Positions 4,253 to 51,827 of a stretch of DNA of 64,000 bases are shown here, piece by piece. The DNA is taken from positions 5,728 to 69,727 of the forward strand of contig CAZDGL010000003.1 in the NCBI GenBank assembly GCA_964505155.1, read 5' to 3'. This DNA comes from an uncultured Candidatus Saccharibacteria bacterium. GTDB taxonomy: Bacteria; Patescibacteriota; Minisyncoccia; Phycocordibacterales; UBA9973. Below the pieces are notes generated by a model. The model saw only the letters and a list, made by a program, of their open reading frames with translations. It ran no database searches and was not told where the DNA came from. Position 1 is the first letter of the stretch. Every line of letters starts with the position of its first letter. The position numbers were made by a program, and so were the translations under genes.

Positions 4253-4338
4253 AATATATGTATAAATACTATTGTATAACAAGATTTTTTAGAAGACTAT
4301 TTGTACAGTTATGTTGTATAATTATCTGTATAAAAAAT

Positions 4339-13300: not shown

Positions 13301-13380
13301 TCTTTGCTTTGTATAATCCTATAAATATAACTATTTTCAACTTCCTTTCTCAGGCATTTGTTCTCCAACCTAAGATTTAA
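4339..13380 (+). CDS. Giant (~3,010 aa) secreted adhesin-like protein built from autotransporter-associated beta-strand (PATR-type) repeats
   Basis: Signal peptide MNVAIKKILKPLAIIFAATFVFCFF..SYA. N-terminal motif WTGATSGSWSVGSNWSGGVAPVTGDDLVFPG and many repeats of the form G.GTLTLSG.NTYTGTTTISAGTL.LGA.GG.TNTPLGTT are characteristic of PATR/TIGR02601-type repeats. The ORF-track start at 4258 precedes the signal peptide, so ATG at 4339 is chosen. The C-terminus has poly-Gly runs. Confidence 0.8.
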   Translation: MNVAIKKILKPLAIIFAATFVFCFFSSEYSYAATRTWTGATSGSWSVGSNWSGGVAPVTGDDLVFPGGASNLSNTNDLTENTIINSITISGSGYTLSGNPIILGPGLAGLTDSASSGGNTVALDIRLDATRDIFVTNSGETLTISGRIAGVGGINKEGTGKLVLSGANTFGGILKINVGIVNAQNNTALGTIAAGTEVVGNAALELQGNIDISYEALALRGYGVSSTGALRNISGTNTYRGLITLSSAGGTEIASDSGTLTITGGMSGAFPLVIDGSGDVTYSTTPIATGSGTVTKNGSGTLTYNFPNTYSGLTTINAGTLLYGVDNAILTGAITVTGGTLDIATYSDMVGSVVVGTLDLASGTITGSTGVLSSAAWTVYNGTISAIIAGYAGTLTKSTTGTVVLTRANQFTGNTTISAGILEIQNSTSLGFIDGITTVSAGATLQINGSGLSIPEYITFSGTGHLYTGAIRNMGGDNTLTGLLTLGAAARIKSDASTTLTIDSKGLSATTLGLTIGGAGNTTFTSTAPIYGTTATLTKQDSGVLTMQAFNNFTGATNLNRGEIVLSSTGAMPNSTITVGSGGTLTLDNSSTTLLNRISDSAALTMNGGSFNFIGNATGTALENAGALTIASGHNTVTVTPGAGGPTTMNFASLSRTAGATVLFRGTNLGSNPAPNISTIMFTSAPAVLGGGGGAGTTTASIIKGAFGDSSLSGTGSDMVTYNLGNTNGLRLLNGAGFSGEYAFTLATNANVKLVADTVASTSSINSLILDGFSITNPGSAQTITLSSGSLAGNILMNSATSIAGANTTLGITTNHLDILTTASATISAVIGTAVAGSVAISGTGSATVSAANLYTGTTFINNATLFAGATNALSSGGVTVVGGTYDLGNFNDTVGAVILQNGTITSGSGTLSGTSYSLREGTVSAILGGGAATVTRIATSAAADSVVTMTRDNTYTGTTTITSGILKLGAAGGGTNTPLGTTGGGTLIASGGALDLNGYTLGTAEAITSLAGTGFGASGSSNMGAIMNSSASPASYSGALTLTAAARINADAGALTISGNASGNFALTFGGFSDITYSGVRSGTSTIVKDGVNTLTLSSGSSSYTGATTISAGTVKVGAASVGGTNSPLGTTGGATTVALGSRLDLNGFNLGIAEPLTLNGVGYGLGDFASGALVNSSGSTVTYSGLITLGSASTIKADSGTVNLTAAGTISGATFGLTLGGAGTGTLSSIIGTTTGTVTKIDTGTWTISGVSTYTGATTVSRGTLRLGGGAGGPTNSVLGTTGGATSVLSGAVLDLNGITLGIAESLTINGRGIDDGGALIGGAVTWPGTVAQATDSRITSSSGTLTITGAVSGAFALYVGGAGNTTFSTATGTAGLSLTKQGAGTLTLTGTNTHTGATRVESGTLAYAASTTLAATALTVLGGTFNSGANADTIGAVTLIGGTITNSAALTGTAYTFEGGNISGILAGAIAVTKNTNNTVTLSGVNTISSTITINAGTLTFSGSGSATSVTGVTVNLGGTLTLDNSTTAVADRLNGTGGTNAIVLTMNGGNFNFIGNGAAASSETLGQLALASGHNIVTVTPGAGGSTTLTFATNPGFNRTAGATVLFRGTNFGSNSGANVSTLVFSTTPTLTGAGGASGSATVSIIKGAFGDSSLSGTGSDMVTYQGGTGLRLLNGAGFANEYSGDFQTANANVKLTADRAAVATNTNSLILNGFSVTNPGGAVTIPMASASLSGNILINSTNNIAGANTTLGITTFELPILATASSTISATIGTATTGSLTLSGSGNVTLTATNAYTGTTFINNAILTSGANNVLSSGGVTVVGGTYNLNGNSDTVGSISINAGTIATGAGTLTGNGTFTTVANANFASIITGNLGLGANATFTINDGLMDNDAVISAVISGGFTFAKAGNGILELSGSNSYTGTTTISGGILRLGASGGATNTPLGTTAGGTTVSGASSALDLNGYSLGTSEALTLSGALATGALQNTSSTAVTYTGLITLGAASTIISNYGDISITNSGTISGATFGLTIGGAGNGLLFSILGTTSGTLTKNGVGVWTLYGSSTFTGTTTISAGTLKLGAAGGATNTPLGTTAGATSITSGAVLDLNGFTLGTAEPVTINGTGIASIGAFINSSNNTISYSGAITLGAASRVANYGSGLMTVSGNISGNFALTVVTVGNFTQATNSVWSGSGSLVKEGSGTLILSGQNSTTGAMTVSTGKLQLGASGGATNTPLGTNAGGVTVSSGAVLDLSTFSLGGASTYETLNLSGTGINNNGALTFSASTNNNFGAMTVAANTRIINSGSGTVTFGGTITAANGITLAIGGTGPTSITGVFGATATTATLTKWDAGTLTISAASITTGLVRINGGTLRYGVADALSTPAVTVAGGTLNLNGFSETNIGAVTLIDGSIVNTGAAATLTSTATYTLENGTVSAVLGGAVVAAIVKNTAGRVILSGDNTFNGTSATIAINAGYLNLRHNNALGAAASANTTTILGGATLELENSITIPSVKAITANGTGMERNGAIRNVSGTNSIGANITLGTTNVRINSDSGTLTIPTVSGNTFNSIFGGAGNTTVSGAITTTSGTLTKDGAGTLTLSGNNTYTGTTTLINGTIVANTTNSLGNESSTNTFIFRGGTLQATGTITSAATRAFTLASNATIDTNGNSVSIAGTVGSIGGLTKTGAGTLTITGVTTIGGNLAISSGTFVAPTTLTLGGDLTNSGTFTHSNGTVTIAPTNSTLTTNILGTSDTAFYNLTNNTAGSTIQFKAGNTYTFANTLIINGSEGNPVSINSDSAGVQWLMTLSGSASLAHLKVKDSGCSGGNTVSASGNVYDYGNNGICWSFISPGFKRGGDSIESSAAPSGQVGGGGSGGSGGGGVSYAVATAVVSSNVVQSVTIDSGGSGYTFAPTVLFCGGGGSGALGTAVLTGDAVSSVTVDNGGSGYSSVPTVVFNSNCPTSGGSGGGGGGGDIGFLYQRRRFFALYNPINITIFNFLSQAFVLQPKI
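6050..7400 (+). repeat. Intragenic large repeat, copy 1 (within the giant adhesin gene)
   Basis: Protein segment NGGSFNFIGNATGTALENAGALTIASGHNTVTVTPGAGG...RTAGATVLFRGTN...IIKGAFGDSSLSGTGSDMVTY... and the following ~450 aa recur about 2.85 kb downstream. DNA identity is high locally, e.g. ggtgcatttggtgacagctctctctctggaacaggttctgatatggt versus ggtgcttttggggatagctctctttctggaacaggttctgatatggt. Boundaries are approximate. Confidence 0.6.
8900..10300 (+). repeat. Intragenic large repeat, copy 2
   Basis: Second copy: NGGNFNFIGNGAAASSETLGQLALASGHNIVTVTPGAGG...RTAGATVLFRGTN...IIKGAFGDSSLSGTGSDMVTY.... The similarity continues through GILRLGASGGATNTPLGTTAGG and beyond. Boundaries are approximate. Confidence 0.6.
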
Positions 13381-33758: not shown

Positions 33759-33789
33759 ATGTTTTAGTATATAACGCTTTAGCTTAAAT

Positions 33790-36456
33790 ATGCTACAATC
33801 GCTTATATTTATGAAGAAAGAGAGCCAAAAAAAAGAAGAAACACAAGGGCTTATTGTAGTTAAAGGGGCTCGGACCCATAACCTCAAAAATGTCTCTGTC
33901 GAAATGCCGAGAGGTAAGATGATTGCTATTACTGGACTCTCTGGTAGTGGCAAGAGTTCTTTGGCTTTCGATACTATTTTTGCTGAAGGACAGCGTCGTT
34001 ATGTGGAGAGCCTATCTTCATATGCAAGGCAATTTTTGAATCAAATGCCCAAGCCTGATGTGGACGAAATCTCTGGTCTTTCACCAGCTATTTCTATCGA
34101 TCAAAAGTCTCGCTCCAACAACCCTCGATCTACTGTTGCGACCATCACTGAGATGTATGACTACATGCGTGTTCTTTATGCACGTGTCGGCAAGGCGTAT
34201 TGTCCGGTTTGCGGCACTCTTATCCAAAAACTCTCTCCAGAAGAAATCAACACTTTTATTCTTGGAAAGATTAAAGATTTTTCTAAAAAGAAAAATCCGC
34301 CAGCTGGAGGAAAATCTGTTATGGGAGTTTCTTGGAATGACACTCGCATCCAAATCTACGCTCCTATTGTTCGTGGAAGAAAAGGTGAATACTACCAACT
34401 CCTTTATGATCTTATCGGTAAAGGCTTTAGTACTGTGCGCATCGATGGCAAGATTCACAAACTTCGAGAGCGTATAGAGCTCAAGAAAAATGATAAGCAC
34501 ACTATCGAAGTCTTGGTAGACGAACTTGCAGTACATGAATTCAAAGACAGCCCTAGAGATGCCGAGCTTCGCCTTTTTGAAGCAACAGAGCGAGCGCTCC
34601 TAGAAGCTGATGGCTTGGTACAGGTAGTCTTTGGTGTTTCCGAAGACTTTGATATGCAGACAGAACCTCTTCAAGAGTTTTTGATGTCTTCCAAGTTTTC
34701 TTGTCCAAATGATGGATATTCTTTCCCTGAAATAGAGCCAAGACTATTTTCTTTCAACTCTCCTTATGGAGCTTGTCCAGAGTGTAATGGTATCGGAACT
34801 AAGTTCTTCGGTGGGACTGAAGCATGTGAAGTCTGTGGTGGCAAAAGACTTCGTCCAGAAGCATTAAATGTATTTCTAGATTCTGGTAAAAAGAAAACCA
34901 ATATAGTTGATCTGACTTCTTTTTCTGTTGAAGAAGCATTTGAATTTTTTGGATCTCTTAAACTCTCTGCCAAAGACATGGAGGTTGCCAAAGCCGTACT
35001 TAAAGAAATAGAAGACCGACTCAACTTTTTATTAAATGTGGGGCTCAACTACTTGGCTTTATCTCGTACCGCCAACACTCTCTCTGGAGGAGAAGCACAA
35101 CGTATCAGACTAGCCTCACAGCTCGGTTCTCGCCTTGTCGGAGCGATGTATGTACTGGACGAGCCAACTATTGGACTTCATCAAAGAGACAATGAAAGAT
35201 TGATTCGTACTTTGGAAGATCTGCGTGATGTCGGCAATACTATCTTGGTTGTTGAGCACGATGAAGATACCATTTATGCTTCTGATTATTTGGTAGATAT
35301 TGGTCCTGGTGCTGGGGTTCATGGTGGGCAAGTTATAGTCTCAGGCTATCTAGACAAACTTCTTTCTGCCAAGAAAAACGAAAGTGGCTCTCGTACACTT
35401 GCTTATTTGCGCAAAGAAGAAGAGATAGAGACACCAGAGAAACGTCGTGATGTAGATAAAGGCATGCTCAAGATAGTTGGAGCAAATCTTCACAACATTC
35501 ACAATCAAAACATCGATGTGCCACTTGGTAAAATGGTTTGTATCACCGGAGTCTCTGGTAGTGGCAAGAGTACATTTCTTTATGAAATTCTTTATAAGAA
35601 TCTTCAAGCTCGTTTTGAACGCAAGCTTCGTAGTGCCAAAGTTTACAACTGTGCATCTTTTACTGGTACTGAGTATCTCGCTCGCGCTATTATGATAGAT
35701 CAGTCGCCAATAGGTCGCACTCCGAGAAGCAACATTGCAACTTACACCGGAGCCTTCACTCATATCCGAGATATCTTTGCTCAAACAGAAGAAGCTAGAC
35801 TACGTGGCTGGAAGGTCAATAGATTTTCTTTTAATGTCAAAGGTGGCAGGTGTGAAGCTTGTGAAGGTAATGGCGAGATAGCTGTAGAGATGCACTTTTT
35901 GCCGACCGTGTATGTGACTTGTGATGTTTGTGGTGGAAAACGTTTTGACAAAGAAACTTTGACAGTCAAATACAAACGTAAAAATATTTACGATGTTCTT
36001 CAGATGTCTGTTGAAGAAGGTTTGGAGTTTTTTGCTGATATTCCTGCTGTTTACGATAGACTTAAGACTCTCTCTGAAGTAGGGCTCGGTTATGTGAAGC
36101 TTGGTCAAAGCGCGACCACTCTCTCAGGTGGAGAAGCACAGCGTGTTAAAATTGCCTCAGAACTTTATCGTCCATATCTCGAAAAGACTATCTACCTACT
36201 TGATGAACCAACTGTTGGGCTACACTATGATGATGTTAAAAATCTTATAGGAGTTTTAAACAGGCTTGTCGCCAAAGGCAACACTGTTGTTGTGATCGAA
36301 CACAACCTCGACCTTATCAAATGTGCTGATCATCTTATAGACTTTGGTCCCGAAGGGGGGATAGCAGGAGGCAAAATAATTGCCAAAGGTACCCCAGAAG
36401 AAGTCGCAAACAATAAACACAGTTTTACAGGAGAGTATTTAAAAAAGATTTTATAA
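33790..36456 (+). CDS. uvrA: Excinuclease ABC subunit A
   Basis: GARTHNLKN start motif, two ABC ATPase modules (GLSGSGKSSL; GVSGSGKSTF), Zn-finger Cys clusters. The alternative ATG at 33811 (MKKESQ...) may be the true start. Confidence 0.95.
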   Translation: MLQSLIFMKKESQKKEETQGLIVVKGARTHNLKNVSVEMPRGKMIAITGLSGSGKSSLAFDTIFAEGQRRYVESLSSYARQFLNQMPKPDVDEISGLSPAISIDQKSRSNNPRSTVATITEMYDYMRVLYARVGKAYCPVCGTLIQKLSPEEINTFILGKIKDFSKKKNPPAGGKSVMGVSWNDTRIQIYAPIVRGRKGEYYQLLYDLIGKGFSTVRIDGKIHKLRERIELKKNDKHTIEVLVDELAVHEFKDSPRDAELRLFEATERALLEADGLVQVVFGVSEDFDMQTEPLQEFLMSSKFSCPNDGYSFPEIEPRLFSFNSPYGACPECNGIGTKFFGGTEACEVCGGKRLRPEALNVFLDSGKKKTNIVDLTSFSVEEAFEFFGSLKLSAKDMEVAKAVLKEIEDRLNFLLNVGLNYLALSRTANTLSGGEAQRIRLASQLGSRLVGAMYVLDEPTIGLHQRDNERLIRTLEDLRDVGNTILVVEHDEDTIYASDYLVDIGPGAGVHGGQVIVSGYLDKLLSAKKNESGSRTLAYLRKEEEIETPEKRRDVDKGMLKIVGANLHNIHNQNIDVPLGKMVCITGVSGSGKSTFLYEILYKNLQARFERKLRSAKVYNCASFTGTEYLARAIMIDQSPIGRTPRSNIATYTGAFTHIRDIFAQTEEARLRGWKVNRFSFNVKGGRCEACEGNGEIAVEMHFLPTVYVTCDVCGGKRFDKETLTVKYKRKNIYDVLQMSVEEGLEFFADIPAVYDRLKTLSEVGLGYVKLGQSATTLSGGEAQRVKIASELYRPYLEKTIYLLDEPTVGLHYDDVKNLIGVLNRLVAKGNTVVVIEHNLDLIKCADHLIDFGPEGGIAGGKIIAKGTPEEVANNKHSFTGEYLKKIL

Positions 36457-37314
36457 ATGATTTCAAAAGAAGTTTTATCAAGAGCCAAAGCAATAACCAA
36501 GCTTTATGGCCGAGGATTTTATCGGGCTTCTTTTTTGTTTCCCAAAAAGACAAGAGAAGCTACTTGGGTGCTTTATGCTTTTGTGCGCATACCGGACGAG
36601 ATGGTAGATAGTGAACCTGACAAAAGCGTCGCCAAAGCTAGTTTAGAAAAATGGATGGTAGATTGGGAAAAGGTAGTAAGAGGATCAAAAGAGCAAAGTG
36701 TAGATCCTATACTTTTTGCTGCCAAAGAAGTTTTTGATGAATATAAGATAGATATCAAATACAGTTATGATTTTTTCTCATCAATGCATCAAGATTTAGA
36801 AACTACTAGATATCATTCTTATAAAGAACTAGAGAGTTATATGTATGGCTCCGCAAGTGTTATCGGCATTATGATGAGCCACATCATCGGTTTTAAACAA
36901 GGCGCTTTGCCTTATGCTAAAAGCTTAGGAGAAGCTTTTCAGCTCATCAACTTTTTACGCGACACACAAGATGATTATAGAACTCGTGGAAGAATCTATA
37001 TACCAAAGGAAGATATGGATAGGTTTGGTGTCTCAGAAGATCATATAAAAAACAGTATTAACGATAGCGCGTGGAAAGCCCTGATGAGTTTTGAGGTTGC
37101 TAGAGCAAAAGGTTTACTTGAAGAAGGAAGAAAAGGTATACCACTTTTAAATGGAAGAGGACAAAAGGCTGTATATGCGTCATATCTTATATATAAAAAG
37201 CTTTTGGAAGAAATAGAACGCTTGGATTATGACACTTTTTCAAGACGTGTTGTTATTAGTCCGCTTGATAAGACAATGCTATTATTGAAAGCACTATGGA
37301 ACAAAAGTCTGTAA
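36457..37314 (+). CDS. crtB: Phytoene/squalene synthase family protein (phytoene synthase-like)
   Basis: YGRGFYRASFLFP...WVLYAFVRIPDEMVD Asp-rich motif region of trans-isoprenyl diphosphate synthases (head-to-head). The start overlaps the uvrA stop (taaatg). Confidence 0.75.
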   Translation: MISKEVLSRAKAITKLYGRGFYRASFLFPKKTREATWVLYAFVRIPDEMVDSEPDKSVAKASLEKWMVDWEKVVRGSKEQSVDPILFAAKEVFDEYKIDIKYSYDFFSSMHQDLETTRYHSYKELESYMYGSASVIGIMMSHIIGFKQGALPYAKSLGEAFQLINFLRDTQDDYRTRGRIYIPKEDMDRFGVSEDHIKNSINDSAWKALMSFEVARAKGLLEEGRKGIPLLNGRGQKAVYASYLIYKKLLEEIERLDYDTFSRRVVISPLDKTMLLLKALWNKSL

Positions 37315-38801
37315 TCATAATAGGAGCAGGTATAGGAGGCTTGGCTTTGGCCGGCATGCTTGGAAAAGCTGGTTACAAAGTTACAATCATAGAAAAAAAC
37401 GAAATGGTTGGTGGGCGTGCGCGTATATTTTCTGACAAAGGATTTATGTTTGATATGGGTCCAAGCTGGTACATGATGCCGGATGTCTTTGAACACTTTT
37501 TTGAAATAATGTCTGAGGATATAAAGAGTCACTATCATTTAGAAAGACTTTCTCCCTCTTATCAGATAACCCTCAAGAGCGATGGGAAGAGTTATAAGTT
37601 TTATTCTGATATGACTAAAAACAAAGCTCTTTTTGAAAGCATCGAATCAGGAGCAGGCGAAGTGCTTGAGAAGTTTTTGGCTGAAACAAAATGGCAATAC
37701 GAACTTTCAAAGAGCGAGTTTATGTACAAAAACTACAACTCTGTTCGTGACTTTATGACTCTTAGGATTATGCGTCAGGGCGCCAAGCTTCCTCTTTTTA
37801 AAAAACAAAAACAAATCATCGAAAAGAAATTTAAAAGTGAAATTCTTCGTAAGGCTCTTCAGTATCAAACAGTGCTTCTCGGTACTGCTCCAGGAGATAC
37901 GCCTGGGATTTATACTCTGATGAACTATGTCGACCTTGTTCTCGGTGAATGGTACCCATCGGGTGGCATCAGAGCTATCCCAAACTCTCTCGAAAAAATT
38001 GCCAAAAAGTACGGGGCAGAAATAATACTAAACACACCAGTCAAAGAAATATTGGTTCAAAACAACCTCGCAAAAGGTGTGCTTTTGGAAAATGGCCATA
38101 CTTTAAACGCAGATATCGTTGTTTCTAATGCAGACATTTGGCATACCGATACAAAGCTTCTTCCTCAAGCATTTCGTACCAAGAGCGACAAATACTGGAA
38201 CTCACGCGTTTTGGCGCCGAGCGCATTTATTATCTATCTCGGAGTCAAAGGTAAGCTTCCACAAATGGAGCATCACAATCTTCTTTTTACCAAAAATTGG
38301 GAAGAGGGCTTTGGTCAAATATTCAAACATCCTGAGTGGCCTCATGACCCTTCTATGTATATCTGTGTTCCAAGTAAAACAGATCTATCTGTCGCTCCTA
38401 TTGGTGATGAAAATCTTTTTGTGTTAGTTCCTATAGCTTCAGGGCTTGAGTATACAGAAGACTTTGCCAAAGAATACGGAGATAAAGTCCTTGGTGAAAT
38501 AGCGCAGTATTACAACATCCCCGATCTTAAAGAGCGCATCGTTGTGAGGCACCACTACAGCGTCAAAGACTTTATGGCTGATTACAATGCTTTCAAAGGC
38601 ACAGCACTCGGGCTTGCGCATACACTCACACAAACCGCTATTTTCCGTCCCAACAATGTCCATCCTAAAATCAAAAATATGTACTATGTCGGAGCGGGAA
38701 CAAATCCAGGTATTGGTATGCCTATATGTCTCATTTCAGCCGAGCTTGCATATAAGCGTATAGAAAATATTACCCACCCATTTCCGCTTGAGAAAATATA
38801 A
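37296..38801 (+). CDS. crtI: Phytoene desaturase family FAD-dependent oxidoreductase
   Basis: N-terminal Rossmann motif VIIIGAGIGGLALAGMLGKAGYKVTIIEKNEMVGGRA; ~500 aa; overlaps the crtB 3' end by 19 nt. Confidence 0.8.
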   Translation: MEQKSVIIIGAGIGGLALAGMLGKAGYKVTIIEKNEMVGGRARIFSDKGFMFDMGPSWYMMPDVFEHFFEIMSEDIKSHYHLERLSPSYQITLKSDGKSYKFYSDMTKNKALFESIESGAGEVLEKFLAETKWQYELSKSEFMYKNYNSVRDFMTLRIMRQGAKLPLFKKQKQIIEKKFKSEILRKALQYQTVLLGTAPGDTPGIYTLMNYVDLVLGEWYPSGGIRAIPNSLEKIAKKYGAEIILNTPVKEILVQNNLAKGVLLENGHTLNADIVVSNADIWHTDTKLLPQAFRTKSDKYWNSRVLAPSAFIIYLGVKGKLPQMEHHNLLFTKNWEEGFGQIFKHPEWPHDPSMYICVPSKTDLSVAPIGDENLFVLVPIASGLEYTEDFAKEYGDKVLGEIAQYYNIPDLKERIVVRHHYSVKDFMADYNAFKGTALGLAHTLTQTAIFRPNNVHPKIKNMYYVGAGTNPGIGMPICLISAELAYKRIENITHPFPLEKI

Positions 38802-38931
38802 AAACCCGATCTCTCGGGCTTTTTACACTAGCTGTTTATATGCCAGGTAGCTAGTTCTGCTGGGGTCTTTATACACCGACAATTACTTTTTTTAATACTA
38901 CTAATTTCTATATAAAAATCAAATTTAAGAT

Positions 38932-39792
38932 CTAGAAAATATTCTTGGCAAAAAGTTCCATTGAGACTAGAGCGCCGATGAGGGTGTTAATGAGTGGGAA
39001 GTAGGTATAGAGCTTAAAGAGTGCTTCAGGTGTCTTTGCTCTTTGGCTACGCCACATAAAATATGAAAATGTTATGACGCCTATGATAGAAGCTATAGGT
39101 ATGATGTCTCGCACGAGATATCCAGCAAATGCATAGAGGAACCAGCACAGAGCAATAGTGCGTCTCTCGCCAATCATGATAGCGATAGTATGTAGCCCTG
39201 CTTGTAGGTCTGCTTTGATGTCAGGCACTGCGCTATAGGCATGCATTGCTATAGCCCAACACATTCCAGCAATCACGCCGACAGCAGGGAAGGCTACTCC
39301 TCCGGCAAGATAATATCCAAACACACCAGTTGCCACGTAGTGCCCAGCAGAAAATAGTGAGTCTATAACAGGTTTGGCTTTGGCTCGTATCGGACTTGCA
39401 GAATAAAACGATGCAAAAAATACAAAGGCAAAAAAAGAAATAAGTAGAGGAGTATAAAGTGAAAAGAATATAAGAAAAAAGAAAAAAGGAATATTGGTCC
39501 ATATTATCCAACGCCAAAGTGCTCGCTGTCTCTCAGGGGGCACGAGTGCTTCGTAAGCATTGTCACCTTTTTTGGGGTTGAGTTTGTCTGTCTCATAATC
39601 AAAGATATCGTTGATACCATATATCAAGATATTTGCTGGGATTAGGAAGTATAGTGCAAATACCCAGTACCTCCAGTCTGAGAAAAAAGACAGTCCTTGT
39701 AGTGCCCCTACTGTACCCACAAGTCCAAATGTTGCTGCTTCATAAAGCCAAAAACGTGGTCTAGATATTTTGATAACTTCTTTGAATTTCAT
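38932..39792 (-). CDS. UbiA-family polyprenyltransferase (possible lycopene elongase / prenyltransferase)
   Basis: Multi-TM protein with Asp-rich motif NDIFDYETDKLN (first UbiA motif) and a second D-rich region; convergent with crtI. Confidence 0.75.
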   Translation of the reverse strand: MKFKEVIKISRPRFWLYEAATFGLVGTVGALQGLSFFSDWRYWVFALYFLIPANILIYGINDIFDYETDKLNPKKGDNAYEALVPPERQRALWRWIIWTNIPFFFFLIFFSLYTPLLISFFAFVFFASFYSASPIRAKAKPVIDSLFSAGHYVATGVFGYYLAGGVAFPAVGVIAGMCWAIAMHAYSAVPDIKADLQAGLHTIAIMIGERRTIALCWFLYAFAGYLVRDIIPIASIIGVITFSYFMWRSQRAKTPEALFKLYTYFPLINTLIGALVSMELFAKNIF

Positions 39793-39851
39793 AAATAGAT
39801 ATTACCACAAATAAAACCACCCTCATTGGCTTGAGGGGGTAGTTTTGTTTA

Positions 39852-40025
39852 TTTAATATTTTTTACTACTGCAAAACCAGGTTCTGTTTCTACAGTACTC
39901 ACTTTTTCTACTTTTTCTTTAAAGCTCAGAGGGTACTTTTTGCTTTCCTCTAATGCCTTGAAGGACACAAAGATGACAGAACCTATAATGAGGAGAAGTA
40001 CTCCTACAAAGCTATAGGTTTTCAT
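39852..40025 (-). CDS. Possible 57-aa membrane micropeptide
   Basis: ATG start, N-terminal TM (SFVGVLLLIIGSVIFVSF), not in the ORF track because it is shorter than 60 aa. Confidence 0.25.
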
Positions 40026-40095
40026 GTTGATTGTTTTTATAATTATATAACAAAATAAATACTTTCACTTACTATTTTATCATATAATTAGTGAT

Positions 40096-40124
40096 TTGTC
40101 AAGTCAAAAAATACTTGCTATGCT
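40096..40124 (+). promoter_or_regulatory. Candidate promoter TTGTCA-17-TATGCT for uvrC
   Basis: Hexamers at 40096-40101 and 40119-40124, 12 nt before the ATG. Confidence 0.3.
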
Positions 40125-40135
40125 AAACTTGTTTT

Positions 40136-41380
40136 ATGATTCGTCAAGATTTAGACAAATTAAAATTGCCTGAAACTCCGGGTGTATATGTCTGGCGTGA
40201 TAAGGAGGGCAAGATTTTGTATATAGGTAAGGCTACATCACTTCGCGATCGTGTGCGGAGTTATTTTGCGCCTGACGTGATCAAGGCTCGCGGTGCTCAT
40301 ATCGTTGATATGGTATTTAAGGCCTCTACAGTGACTTATCAAGAAACCATGAATGCTCTTGAAGCCTTGATACTTGAAGCCAACCTTATCAAGCGCTATA
40401 AGCCTTATTACAATACCAAAGAAAAAGACGACAAAAGCTTTAACTGTGTGGCTATTACCAAGGAACCATTTCCAAAAGTCATTCTCGTCCGTCAAAAGGA
40501 TATAGATACCAAAAACAAAACAGTCAAAGTTTTGCGTGATCCAAAACCTATATCTTACGATACTGTTTTTGGCCCATATCCGAAGGGTTCTTCTATCAAA
40601 GAGGCCCTCCGAATACTACGCCGGATTTTTCCATTTAGAGATATCGTTTCTTCCAAAAAAGATAACACTGTCTTTTATCGCCAAATCGGTCTTGCTCCAG
40701 ATACTGCTTCTACAGAAGCAGAGCTCATGTACAAGAAGACTATAAGTCGACTCAAGATGATCTTTGAAGGCAAGTATCAAAAGCTTTTGAGTGCTTTGAA
40801 AAAGGATATGATGGTCGCTGCCAAGCGTGAGCAGTTTGAGCTGGCAAATGAGTTAAAGCAAAAAGTCTTTGCCTTGGAACATATCCAAGATATTTCTTTG
40901 ATCAAGAGAGATTTGTCTTCAAGTATCTCTGGTGAGCAGTTTCGTATCGAGGCTTATGATGTCGCGCATATCTCTGGCAAGCAAATGGTCGGTGTGATGA
41001 CGGTGGTCACAAATGCTGTAGCTGACAAAAATGAATATCGAAAGTTTGTTATCAAAGGCTTTGAAAAAGCAAATGATGCTGGAGCACTCCGAGAAATCCT
41101 AACAAGACGCTTTGCTCATCCAGAGTGGACTTTGCCAAATGCCATAGTAGTAGACGGTAATGCTATCCAAATAAATGTAGCTAAAGAAGTTTTGAAAGAA
41201 TTAAATCTAAAAATAGAAATCATTGCTGTTACCAAAGATGAACGTCACAGAGCCAAAGCCATAACAGGGAAAAAAGAGATAGTCGAAGCTCGTAAATACG
41301 ACATTTTGCTAGCCAACTCTGAAGCCCACAGATTTGCTATATCTTTCCACAAGCAAAGACGCAAAAACGCCTTTAAATAA
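40136..41380 (+). CDS. uvrC: Short UvrC-like excinuclease (GIY-YIG plus RNase H-like endonuclease domain; lacks the C-terminal (HhH)2)
   Basis: GIY-YIG block GVYVWRDKEGKILYIGKATSLRDRVRSYF; central UvrB-binding-like helix; C-terminal ...NSEAHRFAISFHKQRR matches the UvrC endonuclease-domain motif. Only 414 aa versus ~600 for canonical UvrC. Confidence 0.8.
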   Translation: MIRQDLDKLKLPETPGVYVWRDKEGKILYIGKATSLRDRVRSYFAPDVIKARGAHIVDMVFKASTVTYQETMNALEALILEANLIKRYKPYYNTKEKDDKSFNCVAITKEPFPKVILVRQKDIDTKNKTVKVLRDPKPISYDTVFGPYPKGSSIKEALRILRRIFPFRDIVSSKKDNTVFYRQIGLAPDTASTEAELMYKKTISRLKMIFEGKYQKLLSALKKDMMVAAKREQFELANELKQKVFALEHIQDISLIKRDLSSSISGEQFRIEAYDVAHISGKQMVGVMTVVTNAVADKNEYRKFVIKGFEKANDAGALREILTRRFAHPEWTLPNAIVVDGNAIQINVAKEVLKELNLKIEIIAVTKDERHRAKAITGKKEIVEARKYDILLANSEAHRFAISFHKQRRKNAFK

Positions 41381-41398
41381 AGGTTTTTTGGAAAGTAC

Positions 41399-41427
41399 TT
41401 GACAAAAAAGTATATATAAGCTATGAT
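41399..41427 (+). promoter_or_regulatory. Strong sigma70-type promoter TTGACA-17-TATGAT
   Basis: ttgaca at 41399-41404, exactly 17 nt, tatgat at 41422-41427; just downstream of the uvrC stop. Confidence 0.55.
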
Positions 41428-41434
41428 AATAAAA

Positions 41435-42020
41435 AAGTTATTTATATGCTAAAAAACGATTTATCATTTTGGGTTTGAAGGGGAAAGCAAAAAGAAACTT
41501 TCCAGTCTTCACCTAGTTACTTGGTAACAAAAATACATGTTTCAGAGCCAAAGATACACTAATTTGGGCCAGAATCTGAGCTTATATTTAAAATGGTAAG
41601 TAAGTATTATCAATAGTTAGATATGTTTCTAATCAGACTCCTACGAGTACAGAGTCTATGTGTCGTTGGGTCAATTAAAAAGTTCCTCAATGATTAACAT
41701 GATAGGTCTGGGACCAATTACGCCACCTCGTAAAAAGCGGCGTTATCTGTAGATTACATATCCTCTTTGTTGAAAGTTGCGATCGCAATAAGTAAGCAAT
41801 GCAGTTTTAAGTAGTAAAACCGAGCTGTGATTCTCTGGATAGAATCGTTATGTGTTAACAAACAGCGCTTTTTGTTTCAAACCACGTTTTGTGGAAATCA
41901 AAAAGAGGTTCAAGGACTTATTACCGAAAATACTGAGAAGAGTTTAGTGAACACTACCTGATCAGTACACTAAGCCAAACAAAAGAAACTTAACAAAACC
42001 TCGATATTCGGGGTTTTTTA
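41435..42020 (+). ncRNA. Candidate ~590-nt non-coding transcript (unidentified structured RNA or long leader) between the promoter at 41399 and the terminator at 41995
   Basis: No ATG ORF longer than 24 codons on the + strand across ~600 nt in an otherwise tightly packed window; bracketed by a consensus promoter and an intrinsic terminator. RNase P RNA CR-I/CR-IV motifs and a tmRNA tRNA-like end were looked for and not found. Confidence 0.3.
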
Positions 42021-42026
42021 TTTACC
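41995..42026 (+). terminator. Rho-independent terminator
   Basis: 9-bp stem aaaacctcg/cggggtttt with loop atatt, followed by ttttatttac; 30 nt upstream of the ATG at 42056. Confidence 0.65.
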
Positions 42027-42055
42027 TCAGGGTTTAAATGTTGTAAAATACAAGT

Positions 42056-43105
42056 ATGAATACATCTAAGAAGATTTGGGTTATTGTTGTTTTTTCTGTA
42101 GTTATTTTGACTTCTGGGTTTTTGACTTCTATTTTTTTGACCAGCAAAATAGATAGAGAACAAAGAGAACAGCTTTTGATAGATGCCAAGCAGGCTGCGC
42201 TTTTGGTGCCGACTTCTACTCTTAGCACTCTTTCAGCTAGTCCTTCTGATGTTGGCAACCCTCTTTATTCAGAAATGAAAGAAAAGCTAATGATGTTTCG
42301 CCAGTACAATCCACAAAACCGCTTCGTCTATGTTTTGGGCTATAAACCAGAAATCAAAAAACAGTTTTTCTTTGTAGACTCAGAACCTGTCTCTTCTAGT
42401 GACTATTCAGCTCCAGGTGCCCTTTTTCCAGATACAAGAGAAAAAGATATAGAAAATTATCTCAAAGGTGAAGCTTATACCGATGGACCTTATAGTGATA
42501 GTTGGGGTGAATGGGTCTCTGGTTATGCACCTATCAAAGATAATAGTGGAGAAATGATAGGGCTTTTGGGTATAGATACAGCAACTAGCATTTGGCATGA
42601 GCAAATAGGTTTTGTGCGCACTGTTGTTTTGCTTATATCAATACTGCTTTGTTTGTTGTTTGGTTTTATAGTCTATGTTTTAAACAAAAAGCAAAGCTCT
42701 ATCAATACCTTGGTAAAAGAAAACCAAAATCTTTATAACAAAGAAAATAAATTTAAAGAAATGCAGGATTTGGCTCACTTAGGAAGGATCTCTGTTTATT
42801 TTCCAGAGCAAACTTTTGTTTTTGATGGCGCGATAACCAAAAGCCTAGCTATATCTGATGGGGAGAGGCTTAGTAAAGAAGATTTTTCAAATTTTATAAA
42901 AGATTCTGACAAAGATAAGCTTCAAAGTTTCTTGGACTCTTTTAAGGAGACCAAAGATGTCTATGGATGGCTTGATATAGCGCTTGGAACAAAAGATCGA
43001 GGTTATAGAACATTTCATATCTATGGCAACTTACAGAGAGATGAACTACTGGCGCCAAAGAAATTCTCTGGTATCATCCAAGACATTACTGACATAAACA
43101 ATTAA
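42056..43105 (+). CDS. Membrane protein with two TM helices flanking an extracytoplasmic sensor-like domain and a cytoplasmic coiled coil
   Basis: TM1 IWVIVVFSVVILTSGFLTSIFL, ~160-aa extracellular region, TM2 VVLLISILLCLLFGFIVYVL, then a helical C-terminal region. No kinase or output domain. Confidence 0.5.
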   Translation: MNTSKKIWVIVVFSVVILTSGFLTSIFLTSKIDREQREQLLIDAKQAALLVPTSTLSTLSASPSDVGNPLYSEMKEKLMMFRQYNPQNRFVYVLGYKPEIKKQFFFVDSEPVSSSDYSAPGALFPDTREKDIENYLKGEAYTDGPYSDSWGEWVSGYAPIKDNSGEMIGLLGIDTATSIWHEQIGFVRTVVLLISILLCLLFGFIVYVLNKKQSSINTLVKENQNLYNKENKFKEMQDLAHLGRISVYFPEQTFVFDGAITKSLAISDGERLSKEDFSNFIKDSDKDKLQSFLDSFKETKDVYGWLDIALGTKDRGYRTFHIYGNLQRDELLAPKKFSGIIQDITDINN

Positions 43106-43877: not shown

Positions 43878-45719
43878 ATGCAAAATGATGGTGAACGAAT
43901 AACATATTTCGGCGAAACAAATTTTCGTAACCAACAAACTCGCTTTGGTATCAAAAGTCGAGATAGAACTCGTCACATGTATGTGGTAGGAAAGAGTGGT
44001 GTAGGAAAATCTACGCTTTTAGAGAACATGGCTATACAAGACATTCAAAACGGTGAAGGTGTGGCAGTGCTCGATCCGCACGGAAGCTTTGCTGAGAAAA
44101 TGCTTGATTATGTTCCAGAGCATCGTATCAAGGATGTAGTTTATTTTGCTCCTTTTGATATAGACAATCCCGTTTCTTTTAACATGCTCGAGGATATCGG
44201 CGAAGACAAACGTCACTTTGTGGCGTCAGGTCTGATGAGTACCTTCAAAAAGATTTGGGTAGATGCCTGGAGTGCTCGTATGGAGTACATTCTCAACAAT
44301 ATTCTTTTGGCTCTGCTTGAATATCCAGATGCAACACTTTTGGGGGTAAATCGCATGCTCTCTGATAAGGCTTTTCGAAAAAAGGTTGTTGAAAATATCA
44401 AAGACCCTTCTGTTAAAGCTTTTTGGACTGATGAGTTTGAAAAGTATGGTGAGCGCTATATGCAAGAAGCTGGCGCAGCTATTCAAAACAAGATCGGTCA
44501 GTTTACTGCCAATCCGCTTGTTAGAAATATTATCGGTCAACCCAAGTCAAGTTTTGATGTTCGAGAAATGATGGACAACAAAAAGATTTTGATAGTCAAC
44601 TTATCAAAAGGGCGAATAGGAGAGCAAAACACAAGTCTTCTAGGGTCTATGATTATCACCAAGATATATATCGCAGCTATGAGTCGCGCAGACGTTTCGC
44701 ACACTCGTATGTCCGAGCTTCCGCCATTTTATTTTTATGTCGACGAGTTCCAGTCTTTTGCTAACGAATCTTTTGCCAACATTCTCTCTGAGGCGCGTAA
44801 ATACAAACTCGCTCTCATCATCGCCCACCAATATATTGCTCAAATGGAAGAATCTGTCCGTGACGCTGTCTTTGGAAACGTAGGGACAAGTGTTTCTTTT
44901 CGGGTTGGACCACTTGATTCAGAAATGCTCGAAAAGGTATATGCACCACAGTTTACTGCCAATGACTTGGTAAACCTAGGTTTTGCGCAGATCTACCTTT
45001 CTTTGATGATCAATGATATGGGTTCACAACCTTTTTCTGCCAAAACCTTAGCCCCAATACCTCGGCCCGATATTACTTACAAAAACGATGTTATCGAATG
45101 GACACGAAGTCGCTATGCTTTACCTAAAGAAAAAGTAGAACAAAATATCAGAGACTGGTTCTCTGCTGGAAATGAAGTACCCCCCAACTCTGAAAAACCA
45201 TCTTATGAAAAAAAGCCTTATGTTCCAAATGCAGGCAAAGACTCTTTTGCACCAAGATCAAAACCAGCTTATCAAAATACAAGCAACTCTTCACCCAAGA
45301 ACTTCTCAGAAAATAAAACTGAAAAACCAAAGGTCCACATGCCATTTAAAAAGGTCTTTGATGTTGATTTAAAAACTGAAAAACCAAAAGAAGAGACAGA
45401 AATTTCTTCTTTACTTGACTCTTTGGACACTGAGTCATCCAAAATTAATCAGTCCCCACAGCCTAAAATTTTTCCAAAGACCTCAACACCTTTCTCTGGA
45501 GAAAAGCCTCTTTCAGAGACTATTGCCCCAGTAAAGGTGGCAGAGAGAGGTCCTAAAGAAGCTAGTCGTAATCTTCTGAAAGAAGCTTTAATGAAAGCCA
45601 ATTTTCCCATAGAGGATAAAAAAATAGAACAAAAAGATGTTAATATAAAAACAGGAGATAAATCAGCAGATCAAACAGGTGAAATCTCTCACCAAGATTT
45701 ACAAAAAATATTAGAATAA
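43878..45719 (+). CDS. Soluble TraD/VirD4/TrwB-family (coupling-protein-like) P-loop ATPase with a ~180-aa disordered Lys/Pro/Ser-rich C-terminal tail
   Basis: HMYVVGKSGVGKSTLLE...GVAVLDPHG (P-loop plus DP.G), Walker B FYFYVDEFQSF, and TraG-D_C-like ...LALIIAHQYIAQ...VFGNVGTSVSFRV. No N-terminal TM helices. Confidence 0.65.
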   Translation: MQNDGERITYFGETNFRNQQTRFGIKSRDRTRHMYVVGKSGVGKSTLLENMAIQDIQNGEGVAVLDPHGSFAEKMLDYVPEHRIKDVVYFAPFDIDNPVSFNMLEDIGEDKRHFVASGLMSTFKKIWVDAWSARMEYILNNILLALLEYPDATLLGVNRMLSDKAFRKKVVENIKDPSVKAFWTDEFEKYGERYMQEAGAAIQNKIGQFTANPLVRNIIGQPKSSFDVREMMDNKKILIVNLSKGRIGEQNTSLLGSMIITKIYIAAMSRADVSHTRMSELPPFYFYVDEFQSFANESFANILSEARKYKLALIIAHQYIAQMEESVRDAVFGNVGTSVSFRVGPLDSEMLEKVYAPQFTANDLVNLGFAQIYLSLMINDMGSQPFSAKTLAPIPRPDITYKNDVIEWTRSRYALPKEKVEQNIRDWFSAGNEVPPNSEKPSYEKKPYVPNAGKDSFAPRSKPAYQNTSNSSPKNFSENKTEKPKVHMPFKKVFDVDLKTEKPKEETEISSLLDSLDTESSKINQSPQPKIFPKTSTPFSGEKPLSETIAPVKVAERGPKEASRNLLKEALMKANFPIEDKKIEQKDVNIKTGDKSADQTGEISHQDLQKILE

Positions 45720-45726
45720 ATTTTTT

Positions 45727-47052
45727 ATGATTCGTAACTTAGCGATATTTTTCGTTATAGTTCTTATAAAAACAAGCAGTTGCTATGCTGATATTTTAGT
45801 CACCGAAATAAACTGGATGGGAAGTACTGATAGTCAGTTTGCCGAATGGATAGAACTCTACAACAACTCAGATGAGGAGGTAAATCTTTCAGGTTGGAAG
45901 CTTTATGAAGCAGGTGGAGATACTTTGGTTTTTACTTTTACAAAAAAGATAGCAGGCAAATCTTATCTTTTGCTTGAGCGGACAACGACTAGTTCGCCAG
46001 ACCCAGTACCAAGTGTAAATGATGAATTAGGATCTTTTGGTGGGAGTGGGTTTTCAAACTCGGGTGAGTTTTTGGTTTTGAAAGACAATGCCAATAATAC
46101 TGTGCAGTCTTTAAACTTTTCTCCAGGCTGGCCAGCAGGAGATAGTGAAAGCAAAAAGACTATGCAGTGGGATGGATCAAAGTGGATAACCTCAAGTCCA
46201 ACACCAAAGGCAGGACTCACCAGTACTACTATCACCCCAGAAGAGCCAACTACTTCTGGAGGCGGGAGTTTTGTTCCTGAGAAATTTGAACCCAAAGTGA
46301 CTCTTAGTCTTCCTAAGGTTATCTACACAGATATCGTTTATGAATACAAGGCCGAAACGTATTTGGAATACGGGCTAGTTTATAATGGAGTTTTTGTTTG
46401 GAATATGGGAGACGGCACTATATATAAAAGCCAAAATCCGGAAATAGTGAAGCACAGATACAAATACCCTGGATCTTATATGGTATCTTTTGGGTACTAT
46501 CGAAATCCTTATGAAAAAAAGCCAGTTCTTTTTACCAAAGAAAAAAGATTGGTTGAAAATTCAAAACTAGTCTTTAAAGTACTTCCCGATAAAGGCTTTG
46601 AAATCACCAACAATACAAGCGATGACTTTGATGTCTCTCTTTGGATTATAAAGCTCTCTGACAATAACACTCTGACTTTACCAGAGCTTTCTTTGATTGC
46701 CCCTAAATCAACAATAATCATACCTTTTTCTAACTTCGGATTATCTTCTTATTTGGGTGAAGCGACTTTGTTGACCCCAGAATGGTTAGCTTTTGGGGCT
46801 GATCAGACTGAACCTATAAAATACACTAGCGTAAAGGTTGATAACAAAAAATCTCCTAGTCAAACTGGGGAAGTTTTAGGTGAAAGTGCTTTTGGAGAAA
46901 ATATTATAAAAGAAGAACTCAAGCAAGAAGGTGAAAAACCGATAAAAAACAACAAAGACTATACCCGTATTATAATCCTCAGTATAGCCTTAGTTATTGT
47001 TATTTTTCTTTTTGTTCTTTTAGAGAAGTTTATTGGGTCAAAGGAGGAGTGA
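45727..47052 (+). CDS. Lamin-tail-domain (LTD) containing cell-surface protein with C-terminal TM anchor
   Basis: Signal peptide; ILVTEINWMGSTDSQFAEWIELYNNSDEEVNLSGWKLY matches the LTD signature (Ei......d..EwiEl.N......L.Gw.L); C-terminal TM IIILSIALVIVIFLFVLL. Confidence 0.7.
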   Translation: MIRNLAIFFVIVLIKTSSCYADILVTEINWMGSTDSQFAEWIELYNNSDEEVNLSGWKLYEAGGDTLVFTFTKKIAGKSYLLLERTTTSSPDPVPSVNDELGSFGGSGFSNSGEFLVLKDNANNTVQSLNFSPGWPAGDSESKKTMQWDGSKWITSSPTPKAGLTSTTITPEEPTTSGGGSFVPEKFEPKVTLSLPKVIYTDIVYEYKAETYLEYGLVYNGVFVWNMGDGTIYKSQNPEIVKHRYKYPGSYMVSFGYYRNPYEKKPVLFTKEKRLVENSKLVFKVLPDKGFEITNNTSDDFDVSLWIIKLSDNNTLTLPELSLIAPKSTIIIPFSNFGLSSYLGEATLLTPEWLAFGADQTEPIKYTSVKVDNKKSPSQTGEVLGESAFGENIIKEELKQEGEKPIKNNKDYTRIIILSIALVIVIFLFVLLEKFIGSKEE

Positions 47053-50869: not shown

Positions 50870-51481
50870 TTATTTTTCCTCAATTTTCTTTAATATTAAG
50901 AGTATTTTTTTGAAGTCTTTAATCAATACTTCTCTCATACTGCCATTATATAAAGCGGCGGCAGGGTGATATAGAGGTAAGAAATGTTCGGTATCTATGC
51001 CAGGAATATTTTGGACGATGAGTTTGCCATGTGCTTCAGAGATTTTTAATTCTGGAAAAAAGTGATTCATAGAATGTCGTCCCAAAAACACTATGAGCTT
51101 GGGTGCGATAGTATTGAGCTCTTCATGTAGCCACTCTTTGCAAGCTTCTTTTTCGCTTGGTAGTGGATCACGATTATTAGGTGGTCGGTATTTTACAATA
51201 TTGGTTATATAGATATCAGAGCGAGACATTTTGATACTTGCAAGCATCTCGCTTAGAAATTTTCCTGCAGCTCCGACAAATGGCACGCCTGTCTCGTCTT
51301 CTTTTTTGCCAGGTGCCTCACCGATAAATACCACTTGTGCTTTTGAGTTCCCATCGCCAAAAACTGCTCTAGTGGCAGTATTTTTGAGCTCACAAGTGCA
51401 GTTTTCCTGCCAAAAAGTATTTATTTCTTCTAAGCTTTTTTGGCTAGATTTAGGCATGGTTTTATGATACCATGAAGGCAT
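50870..51481 (-). CDS. ung: Uracil-DNA glycosylase, family 4
   Basis: FGDGNSKAQVVFIGEAPGKKEDETGVPFVGAAGKFL matches the family-4 UDG motif GEAPG..ED..G.PFVG.AG. ATG at 51481 gives a typical 203-aa protein; the upstream 340 nt of the track ORF are low-complexity. Confidence 0.75.
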   Translation of the reverse strand: MPSWYHKTMPKSSQKSLEEINTFWQENCTCELKNTATRAVFGDGNSKAQVVFIGEAPGKKEDETGVPFVGAAGKFLSEMLASIKMSRSDIYITNIVKYRPPNNRDPLPSEKEACKEWLHEELNTIAPKLIVFLGRHSMNHFFPELKISEAHGKLIVQNIPGIDTEHFLPLYHPAAALYNGSMREVLIKDFKKILLILKKIEEK

Positions 51482-51716
51482 GTTTGGACTAAAAAAGATG
51501 CTCACCAACAAACTGTTGGAGCGACAATTAAAAGCTTTGCCAGAAGCACAAAGACAAATGATTATGGAGGCGGTGAACGCCAACCCTGATTTTTTCAACA
51601 AGCTTGCCAAAGAAATAGAGGCTGAAAAAAAGGCCGGCAAAAGCGAGATGGCAGCTTCTATGGAAGTTATGCGTAAGCACCAAGGCGAATTACAAAAACT
51701 AATGATGGGTAAGTAG
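51480..51716 (+). CDS. Small helical hypothetical protein (78 aa; alternative start 51498)
   Basis: Charged, helix-prone sequence (LPEAQRQMIMEAVNANPDFFNKLAKEIEAEKKAG). Its start abuts or overlaps the divergent ung start, so either its true start is internal or it is not expressed. Confidence 0.3.
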   Translation: MFGLKKMLTNKLLERQLKALPEAQRQMIMEAVNANPDFFNKLAKEIEAEKKAGKSEMAASMEVMRKHQGELQKLMMGK

Positions 51717-51827
51717 TTTCTGAGCCTCTCTTTTGGTATCGTGTTGATGTAGTACAAAATGACAAGGGAACAAAACCGATACTGTTTCAGTCTGGAATCA
51801 AATTCTTTTATCACAAATGTCATTTGT

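Follow-up and report, generated by a model that had tools for sequence, protein, structure and literature searches.

What is encoded between uvrC and the next gene in a 64,000-nucleotide (nt) stretch of Patescibacteria DNA (contig CAZDGL010000003.1; hereafter the window, whose numbering is used for all positions), where about 0.6 kb carries no substantial open reading frame (ORF)? The element studied here begins directly after the stop codon of a uvrC-like gene (40136-41380), whose product has GIY-YIG and UvrC RNase H domains, and is followed by an ORF at 42056-43105 that encodes a membrane protein of 349 amino acids (aa) without a Pfam domain (p349). Relatives of the window UvrC belong to Patescibacteria, in genome bins of the Paceibacteria/Nomurabacteria type. 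A first-pass annotation made from the sequence alone had proposed a large structured noncoding RNA (ncRNA) of a new kind, or else an unusually long regulatory leader of the p349 gene. Sequence comparisons make it very probable that the element is a selected structured ncRNA gene. With more reserve, we favour the reading that it is a stand-alone gene of ~590 nt, belonging to a new family that is accessory in a small group of Paceibacteria and that acts in trans as a folded RNA.

The stretch does not resemble a protein-coding gene or a pseudogene. Between 41381 and 42055 there are 9-17 stop codons per frame in all six frames, and the longest plus-strand ORF starting with ATG has 24 codons, as the first-pass annotation had noted; with GTG or TTG starts the maximum is 44 aa. 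UGA recoding and an alternative genetic code were rejected because TAA, TAG and TGA are all present in every frame. Further, no conserved reading frame was found among the homologues described below. Translated similarity was scattered over several frames and both strands, with stops inside, and the 5' AUG starts ORFs that differ in length and frame between lineages. Thus neither a conserved frame nor residual similarity in one frame was detected.

The element also matched no known RNA. A search of the whole window with Rfam 15 at gathering thresholds detected only three tRNAs, and at E<=10 the region 41300-42100 gave only scattered sub-threshold matches (23.6 bits or less) from the terminator and AT-rich stretches. 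In three homologous loci, which like all others are cited by number (L001, L030 and L091), nothing was detected inside the element at gathering thresholds or at E<=5; besides the window, gathering mode was applied to six loci in all, and the element was matched in none of them. No Rfam 15 family was matched, including OLE, ROOL, GOLLD, HEARO, raiA, RNase P RNA, transfer-messenger RNA (tmRNA), 6S RNA, signal recognition particle (SRP) RNA, group I and II introns, riboswitches and T-box. ARAGORN found three tRNAs in the window, none of them in 41381-42055, and neither a tRNA-like sequence nor a tmRNA in the region. The Rfam search that had been suggested, run on the region and its homologues, agrees with the earlier remark that the stretch is not obviously RNase P RNA and not tmRNA. 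We found no prior description of the element in the literature.

Homologues were searched with nhmmer and blastn in 80 uvrC loci from GTDB species genomes, among which only L001 (UvrC 85% identical to that of the window) and L030 (66%) carried the element. Absence here means absence at the uvrC locus; the remaining loci of the series L002-L080 were negative with both a profile of the element and a covariance model of its P10-P11 region. In the closest relatives among these element-free loci, the next gene comes straight after uvrC. Metagenome contigs were scanned with the most conserved 22-mer, CGCMACCTCNTNANAAGCGGCG, which gave 28 matches; only L091 (contig JACCDV010708700.1 of the metagenome assembly GCA_013565675.1) was real, and the other 27 were GC-rich chance matches. 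Viral contigs gave none. Samples that hold carriers include the sources of GCA_031972875.1 and of JGI 3300045356/45347/45354. Contig look-ups for UvrC clusters, which otherwise returned empty sites, added L112-114, whose elements are mutually identical and 97.5% identical to that of L001 (the L112 UvrC carries a 10-aa insertion relative to L001 UvrC), and L120, a different assembly with an element identical to the window copy. The element is therefore represented by five distinct sequences in four lineages: the window with L120, L091, L001 with L112-114, and L030. In every carrier it starts directly after the uvrC stop codon, at a junction TAA-AGGTT(T/A)TT...TACTTGACAAAA (the first hyphen marks the boundary) that is common to the window, L001, L091 and L030 and is not found in empty sites. 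Long gaps after uvrC in three more distant relatives contain tRNA genes and not the element (L052, 3020-3093; L056, 5520-5593; L067, 5421-5493).

The following signals and segments delimit the predicted transcript.

41370..41389, plus strand: weak hairpin CCTTT-AAAT-AAAGG followed by T6, read in the sequence; it overlaps the uvrC stop codon TAA at 41378-41380
41399..41427, plus strand: sigma-70 promoter TTGACA-17-TATGAT, matching the consensus at 11 of 12 positions
41434..42019, plus strand: predicted primary transcript, ~590 nt, noncoding, bounded by the promoter and terminator and with stops in all frames
41906..41994, plus strand: 3' tail with little conservation and differing in length, L001 and L030 having longer versions (comparison of homologues)
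41995..42019, plus strand: intrinsic terminator, AAAACCTCGATATTCGGGGTTTT plus a T-run, with a 10-bp stem and a 3-nt loop; the T-run is also present in the empty site

The near-perfect sigma-70 promoter after uvrC and the strong terminator shortly before the p349 gene had both been recognised in the first-pass annotation. Their number in the region is itself ordinary: six promoter-like sites were counted against 3.5 +/- 1.7 in shuffled sequences, and one terminator against 1.0, 41995-42019 being the only terminator-like site within 41000-42400. The two signals gain weight because they are conserved among relatives, not by their count in 1.4 kb. The promoter hexamers and the 17-nt spacing are identical in the window, L091, L001 and L030, with variable spacer sequence. 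The terminators of the window, L001 and L030 occupy the same position and are all canonical, and they are mutually non-homologous. The element thus has its own promoter and terminator, the function of which is kept across homologues, as in a stand-alone bacterial ncRNA gene. Transcription would start near 41434; both the transcription of the element and the exact ends of its transcript are predictions from these signals. With its initial bases, AGG, the element contributes the 3' half of the hairpin at 41370..41389, which probably serves to insulate or to terminate the transcription of uvrC.

To what extent is the element constrained? Over 509 aligned nt the window and L091 were 89% identical, compared with 55% at four-fold degenerate sites of uvrC; the corresponding values were 63% and 44% for L001 and 51% and 30% for L030. 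The identity of the uvrC nucleotide sequence to that of the window was 83% (L091), 78% (L001) and 64% (L030), so that between the window and L091 the element exceeded even the adjacent coding sequence. Conservation was blocky, with near-invariant islands separated by variable, indel-rich segments. These comparisons indicate that the element is under purifying selection at the nucleotide level. A functionless remnant, namely a decaying pseudogene or dead mobile element that still has a promoter and a terminator, would suit the patchy distribution, the easy loss and the variable spot described below. However, the element is far more conserved than the neutral sites of uvrC, its promoter hexamers are invariant, its terminators have been replaced with their function retained, and no residual frame or protein similarity is left. 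Its helices, moreover, are maintained by compensatory and wobble-preserving substitutions (see below), and we regard a remnant as very unlikely.

The structure of the predicted RNA was examined by comparative folding. RNAalifold on four sequences gave 60 pairs, 28 of which showed compensatory change, and independent minimum free energy (MFE) folds of each sequence agreed in the helices formed and in their homologous locations. Twelve helices were also registered by hand in a table; of its 62 pair positions, 32 were changed on both sides, and 293 of 301 cells were paired, including 11 G-U pairs. Since this table is biased by our own choice of strands, the pairs were recounted on MAFFT alignments made blind to structure; as controls, the 3' partners were slid by 1-3 columns and 500 column shuffles were generated. 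In the MAFFT alignments 84% of cells paired, compared with 31-61% after sliding, and 8-10 pairs were changed on both sides, compared with 1-4. The covariation score was 0.40-0.43, compared with 0.17 or less for the slid controls, and no score as high arose in any of the 500 shuffles. For the core, the structure conservation index was 1.09. Further, four of the six substitutions in the RNA body that distinguish L001 from L112 fall in predicted helices, and all of these positions remain paired via wobble. Thus the covariation across relatives that the first-pass annotation had proposed to look for was found, as compensatory substitutions above the controls in five distinct sequences from four lineages. 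Together with the lack of an Rfam match and of a conserved frame, and with the apparent purifying selection, about ten helices with compensatory changes sustain the earlier candidate of a large structured ncRNA.

The predicted helices are as follows.

41477..41510, plus strand: P1, hairpin with outer helix GAAG/CUUC and inner helix GGAAAG/CUUUCC (MFE fold of each lineage; curated pair table); L030 has UAAA/UUUA as outer and GGGGA/UCCCC as inner helix
41516..41528, plus strand: P2, hairpin GUUAC-UUG-GUAAC (MFE folds and pair table), two pair positions changed on both sides; GUUGU-CAG-ACAAC in L001, an expanded helix with an inserted hairpin in L030
41636..41656, plus strand: P3, hairpin GACUC/GAGUC (GGCC/GGCC in L030) with a near-invariant loop (C/A)GAGUACAG; two of five pairs compensatory, 96% of cells pair
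41658..41700, plus strand: P4, hairpin of variable length (43 nt in the window, 15 nt in L001, 23 nt in L030) and unrelated sequence, formed by each lineage in the same slot between P3 and P5/P6
41705..41715, plus strand: P5, small hairpin GGUC-UGG-GACC, seen in the window, L091 and L001
41720..41743, plus strand: P6, hairpin ACGCC/GGCGU with conserved loop ACCUCNUNANAAG, where conservation of the RNA is highest
41767..41799, plus strand: P8, long hairpin with an invariant palindromic GAUC at its tip; all five inner pairs change on both sides across lineages
41824..41866, plus strand: P10, three-way junction with closing helix GCUGU/ACAGC, an arm GAUUCU/AGAAUC, a second small arm and a conserved junction UGUGUUAACAAACAG (MAFFT pair counts); in helix 1, 100% of cells pair with two compensatory pairs, in helix 2, 90% with three
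41868..41905, plus strand: P11, outer helix CUUUUUG/CAAAAAG around a hairpin CCAC/GUGG (MFE folds, pair table and MAFFT counts); as inner hairpin, L001 has UCAG/CUGA and L030 has UCCU/AGGA

The outer helix of P8 is compensatory even between the window and L091 (UUGUU/AGCAA and UUGUG/CACAA, respectively). For P11 of L001 the MAFFT register is imperfect, and the hand register pairs fully. A candidate kissing loop joins P6 and P3: CUCG in the P6 loop (41727-41730) is complementary to CGAG in the P3 loop (41644-41647) over 4 bp, and 100% of cells are paired. One of these pairs covaries, being C-G in the window and L091 and A-U in L001, L112 and L030. A separate observation concerns P3 in one lineage. 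A 5' insertion GAGGAGU in L001 (~4298-4306 and 4463-4472, with equivalents in L112) is complementary to the 5' strand of P3 (GACUCCUC), and this pairing persists as G-U at each of the two substitutions that set L112 apart (A to G and C to U). The pairing could represent an alternative conformer that competes with P3.

Which strand carries the structure, and is it RNA at all? Folding could not decide the strand, and the strand was therefore assigned from the promoter, the terminator and the 11 G-U pairs. The first-pass annotation had advised checking the minus strand: its frames too are all interrupted by stops, and fold statistics gave no preference for the plus strand. An element acting as DNA, through protein-binding palindromes or as a recombination site, would gain from this lack of strand preference and from the DNA of the P8 tip, where 41777-41788 is a perfect 12-nt palindrome, TTGCGATCGCAA, with a GATC site inside, which is still palindromic in the other lineages (ACATGATCATGT in L030). 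As RNA, the TTGCGATCGCAA palindrome could fold back into a hairpin or pair with a second molecule in an extended duplex. Against a DNA-level role, the unit is bounded on one strand by a conserved promoter and terminator, G-U helix pairs would be A-C mismatches on the other strand and are meaningless in duplex DNA, and long-range or nested helices with arms of variable length are typical of RNA. A purely DNA-level element is accordingly highly improbable.

Several observations weigh against the interpretation as a conserved, structured RNA. Since the window and L091 are likewise 89-91% identical over the final 250 nt of uvrC, part of the 89% identity of the element in this pair could come from a recombination tract rather than from constraint. 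The covariation statistics are weak and phylogenetically non-independent, resting on five distinct sequences in four lineages. The fold z-scores are unremarkable and slightly better for the minus strand (-2.6) than for the plus strand (-1.7), and the structure conservation index is equal on both strands. P5 and P10a were not evident in L030, and no helix closing the 5' domain could be established.

We next consider whether the element is tied to its neighbours. Comparison with close relatives delimited the variable segment precisely.

41381..42013, plus strand: 633-nt segment present in the window and absent in near-identical strains (flank comparison with L109 and L110), starting just past the stop codon of uvrC and ending with the terminator stem

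In L109 and L110, whose UvrC is 97-98% and whose flanks are 96-98% (nt) identical to those of the window, a clean gap was observed, with the uvrC stop followed by TTTTTTATTTACC, the T-run and promoter region of p349. The filled site of the window reads TAAATAA-AGGTTTTTTGG...TTCGGGG-TTTTTTATTTACC, and the empty site of L110 reads TAAATAA-TTTTTTATTTACC. The same polymorphism exists in the L001 lineage, as L121 (UvrC 94% identical to that of L001) lacks the element. Similarly, L115-L119 (UvrC 78-85% identical to that of L030) lack it and have ddl directly after uvrC, with one small ORF between them in L119. In contrast to these closest relatives, L030 carries the element, two small ORFs and a tiny basic ORF between uvrC and ddl. 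Given near-identical strains without it, the element is in all likelihood accessory and dispensable.

The suggestion that the element is a cis-acting leader or attenuator for the membrane protein at 42056-43105 did not survive these comparisons. What speaks for a leader is that the terminator lies ~35 nt upstream of the p349 gene on the same strand. However, p349 has a promoter of its own, TTTACC-17-TAAAAT at 42021-42049, downstream of the element terminator, and this promoter is intact directly after uvrC in the element-free L109, L110, L002 and L121. Since it is kept in empty sites, the element is not the p349 leader. Further, the protein occurs without the element in L002, L003, L005, L009, L027, L109, L110 and L121 (uvrC being directly followed by p349 in the first five), and the element occurs without the protein in L030. 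The gene 3' of the element is p349 in the window and L001 lineages, whereas in L030 it is replaced by unrelated small ORFs and then ddl. A leader would call for a stable downstream gene family and no intervening promoter, and neither was found; we consider its probability close to negligible. Apart from uvrC on its 5' side, the presence of the element is independent of flanking genes.

The same filled and empty sites raise the main alternative, that of a selfish or mobile RNA-gene cassette of 633 nt that inserts site-specifically after the uvrC stop and its terminator-like hairpin, perhaps by way of an RNA intermediate or a recombinase supplied in trans, and whose conservation would reflect the needs of mobility. 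The left junction, TAA-AGGTTTTTTGG..TACTTGACAAAA, is indeed shared by the window clade and the L030 clade, which differ in what lies downstream (p349-spoU and ddl, respectively), the closest relatives of L030 all have uvrC-ddl without the element, clean filled and empty sites occur between strains that are 94-98% identical, and other cassettes occupy the same spot in L004, L006 and L119. In these respects the element is like those non-autonomous mobile RNAs, among them ORF-less group II introns, whose insertion sites lie behind terminator hairpins and which share its size of ~600 nt, the lack of an ORF, the location directly 3' of a hairpin and T-run, and the filled and empty sites.

Unlike such introns, however, the element has its own promoter and terminator and is single-copy in the sequence searched, and no Rfam group II match, and hence no domain V-like element, was detected; neither was a match to a retron or another mobile-RNA family. 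Neither terminal inverted repeats nor a clear target-site duplication was found, the only end feature being a T6/A6-based palindrome at the left, and the hairpins at the right end are not conserved between lineages. Neither the window nor 766 kb of related loci held a second copy, and in the latter the P10-P11 covariance model retrieved known copies only. These are not the features of a non-autonomous transposable element (MITE, PATE or ORF-less intron), which would show inverted repeats or subterminal hairpins common to both ends, a target-site duplication and more than one copy. No substantial match came from collections of phages, plasmids and viruses: with blastn, the only phage match was 42 nt long (E=1e-3, Bacillus phage), which is at chance level, and plasmids gave nothing. 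No integrase, transposase, reverse transcriptase or phage gene was found in the neighbourhood of the element, which is ordinary chromosome (uvrA, phytoene/squalene synthase, desaturase-like oxidase, UbiA, uvrC, SpoU, a VirD4-like ATPase, an extracytoplasmic function (ECF) sigma factor and uracil-DNA glycosylase (UDG)). In addition, the divergence of the element (89/63/51%) tracks that of uvrC (83/78/64% nt), which fits vertical descent with repeated loss. We consider a mobile cassette decidedly unlikely.

If the element is a stand-alone structured ncRNA gene, how might the RNA act? Accessory small RNAs are common in bacteria, and one alternative is a base-pairing regulatory RNA or sponge, in which conserved single-stranded blocks pair with mRNAs, tRNAs or the 3' end of 16S rRNA; the ACCUC loop resembles an anti-Shine-Dalgarno core. 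The strong independent promoter and terminator and the invariant unpaired motifs would suit such a regulator. On the other hand, 590 nt with about ten covarying helices far exceed what a seed-type regulator needs, and the ACCUC loop already has a covarying intramolecular partner. This alternative has a low probability, much like that of a mobile cassette.

In the reading that we favour, a folded RNA acting in trans, transcription would begin at the element's own sigma-70 promoter and stop at its own intrinsic terminator (unit 41381-42019), and the RNA would fold into about ten helices (P1-P11) arranged in several domains. The conserved loop and junction nucleotides GAGUACAG, ACCUCNUNANAAG, GAUC and UGUGUUAACAAACAG would make tertiary contacts, of which the P3-P6 kissing loop is one candidate, and, more speculatively, by analogy with known RNAs, the molecule may self-associate through its palindromic GAUC loop. 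Rather than serving as a leader or antisense RNA, it would most likely act in trans, whether as a scaffold, as part of a ribonucleoprotein or as an "ornate" RNA that assembles with itself. A scaffold or self-assembly mode in particular is tentative: it is proposed by analogy, and the GAUC tetraloop is closed directly by a C-G pair, which is a poor geometry for a kissing complex.

The analogy is with three known families. OLE is an ornate, large, extremophilic RNA of ~600 nt that occurs in Firmicutes, and ROOL and GOLLD are large ornate RNAs that form RNA-only nanocages. The element resembles OLE in its size, in being a stand-alone gene with many helices, in its strongest conservation in loops and junctions, and in a palindromic tetranucleotide at a hairpin tip (invariant GAUC in P8). 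Unlike OLE, it lacks a match to the Rfam model, belongs to a host phylum of the candidate phyla radiation (CPR) and varies between strains. With ROOL and GOLLD it shares the large size, a complex covarying structure and a sporadic, accessory distribution; unlike them it has no covariance-model match and no substantial phage or viral similarity, its immediate neighbours are protein genes and not tRNAs, and it occurs at one chromosomal site in four lineages. Cryo-electron microscopy showed that OLE, ROOL and GOLLD assemble via kissing loops, and the symmetric intermolecular kissing loop of OLE L9.3 is built on the palindrome GGCC, GAUC or AGCU (PMC12286853). Kissing loops are likewise prominent in the architecture of ROOL and GOLLD (PMC12286853), whereas in the element P3-P6 is a candidate only. 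That the element represents a first large "ornate" RNA class confined to CPR/Patescibacteria is conceivable, though unlikely; the RNA would then fold with a P3-P6 kissing loop, self-associate through GAUC as OLE, ROOL and GOLLD do, and be gained and lost as a promoter-to-terminator cassette at the uvrC 3' end in ultra-small episymbionts.

Other known RNAs are less similar. The raiA motif, HEARO and other orphan Rfam ncRNAs are likewise promoter-to-terminator ncRNA genes recognised by covariation, but the element matches none of them, is two to three times as long as raiA and has no adjoining IscB/TnpB-type nuclease as for HEARO. RNase P RNA, tmRNA, 6S and SRP RNA are also structured, trans-acting RNAs with their own promoters, and are abundant; the element has no Rfam or ARAGORN match to them and is of the wrong size. 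Further, it is missing at the locus in strains that are 94-98% identical, which an essential housekeeping RNA would not tolerate unless it were encoded elsewhere.

Large structured ncRNAs (>500 nt) are rare in bacteria, and OLE, GOLLD and ROOL had unprecedented architectures. In the tiny, tightly packed genomes of CPR bacteria, a selected RNA gene of 0.6 kb implies payback. That sister strains do without it suggests a role under particular conditions only, such as stress or contact with a host or with phages. If our reading is correct, the element would add an RNA family to a phylum for which hardly any ncRNAs have been described, and would offer structural work a compact target backed by covariation. 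Its rarity, with four lineages so far, limits the finding.

Some further observations concern the surroundings of the element. The spot directly 3' of uvrC is a hot spot for alternative small cassettes in these Paceibacteria (L004, 1352-1681; L006, ~5281-5622; L119, 1546-1884; L030, 1971-2330, 2420-2818 and ~2915-3040). Each cassette has its own promoter-like TTGACAAA and a terminator; they encode proteins of 109-132 aa, and L030 also has a tiny, highly basic ORF. Pfam and PADLOC gave no match for the cassette proteins and nothing informative for the neighbouring small ORFs and p349. The p349 gene is itself present or absent among close relatives: in L007, L008, L013, L111 and L122 it is missing, and uvrC is directly followed by spoU.

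The neighbourhood in 33775-41380 and 50870-51826 of the window has a UV and photoprotection flavour, with uvrA, phytoene/squalene synthase, a desaturase-like amine oxidase, a UbiA prenyltransferase and uvrC, and a uracil-DNA glycosylase family protein further on. A VirD4/TraG-like coupling ATPase (43878-45719) is followed by a protein with lamin-tail and PKD domains (45715-47052); this pairing is kept in L109 and L111 and may be part of a CPR-typical DNA-uptake or secretion apparatus. Elsewhere in the window, a plus-strand ORF at 4255-13380 has ~3,041 codons, which is very large for a CPR genome.

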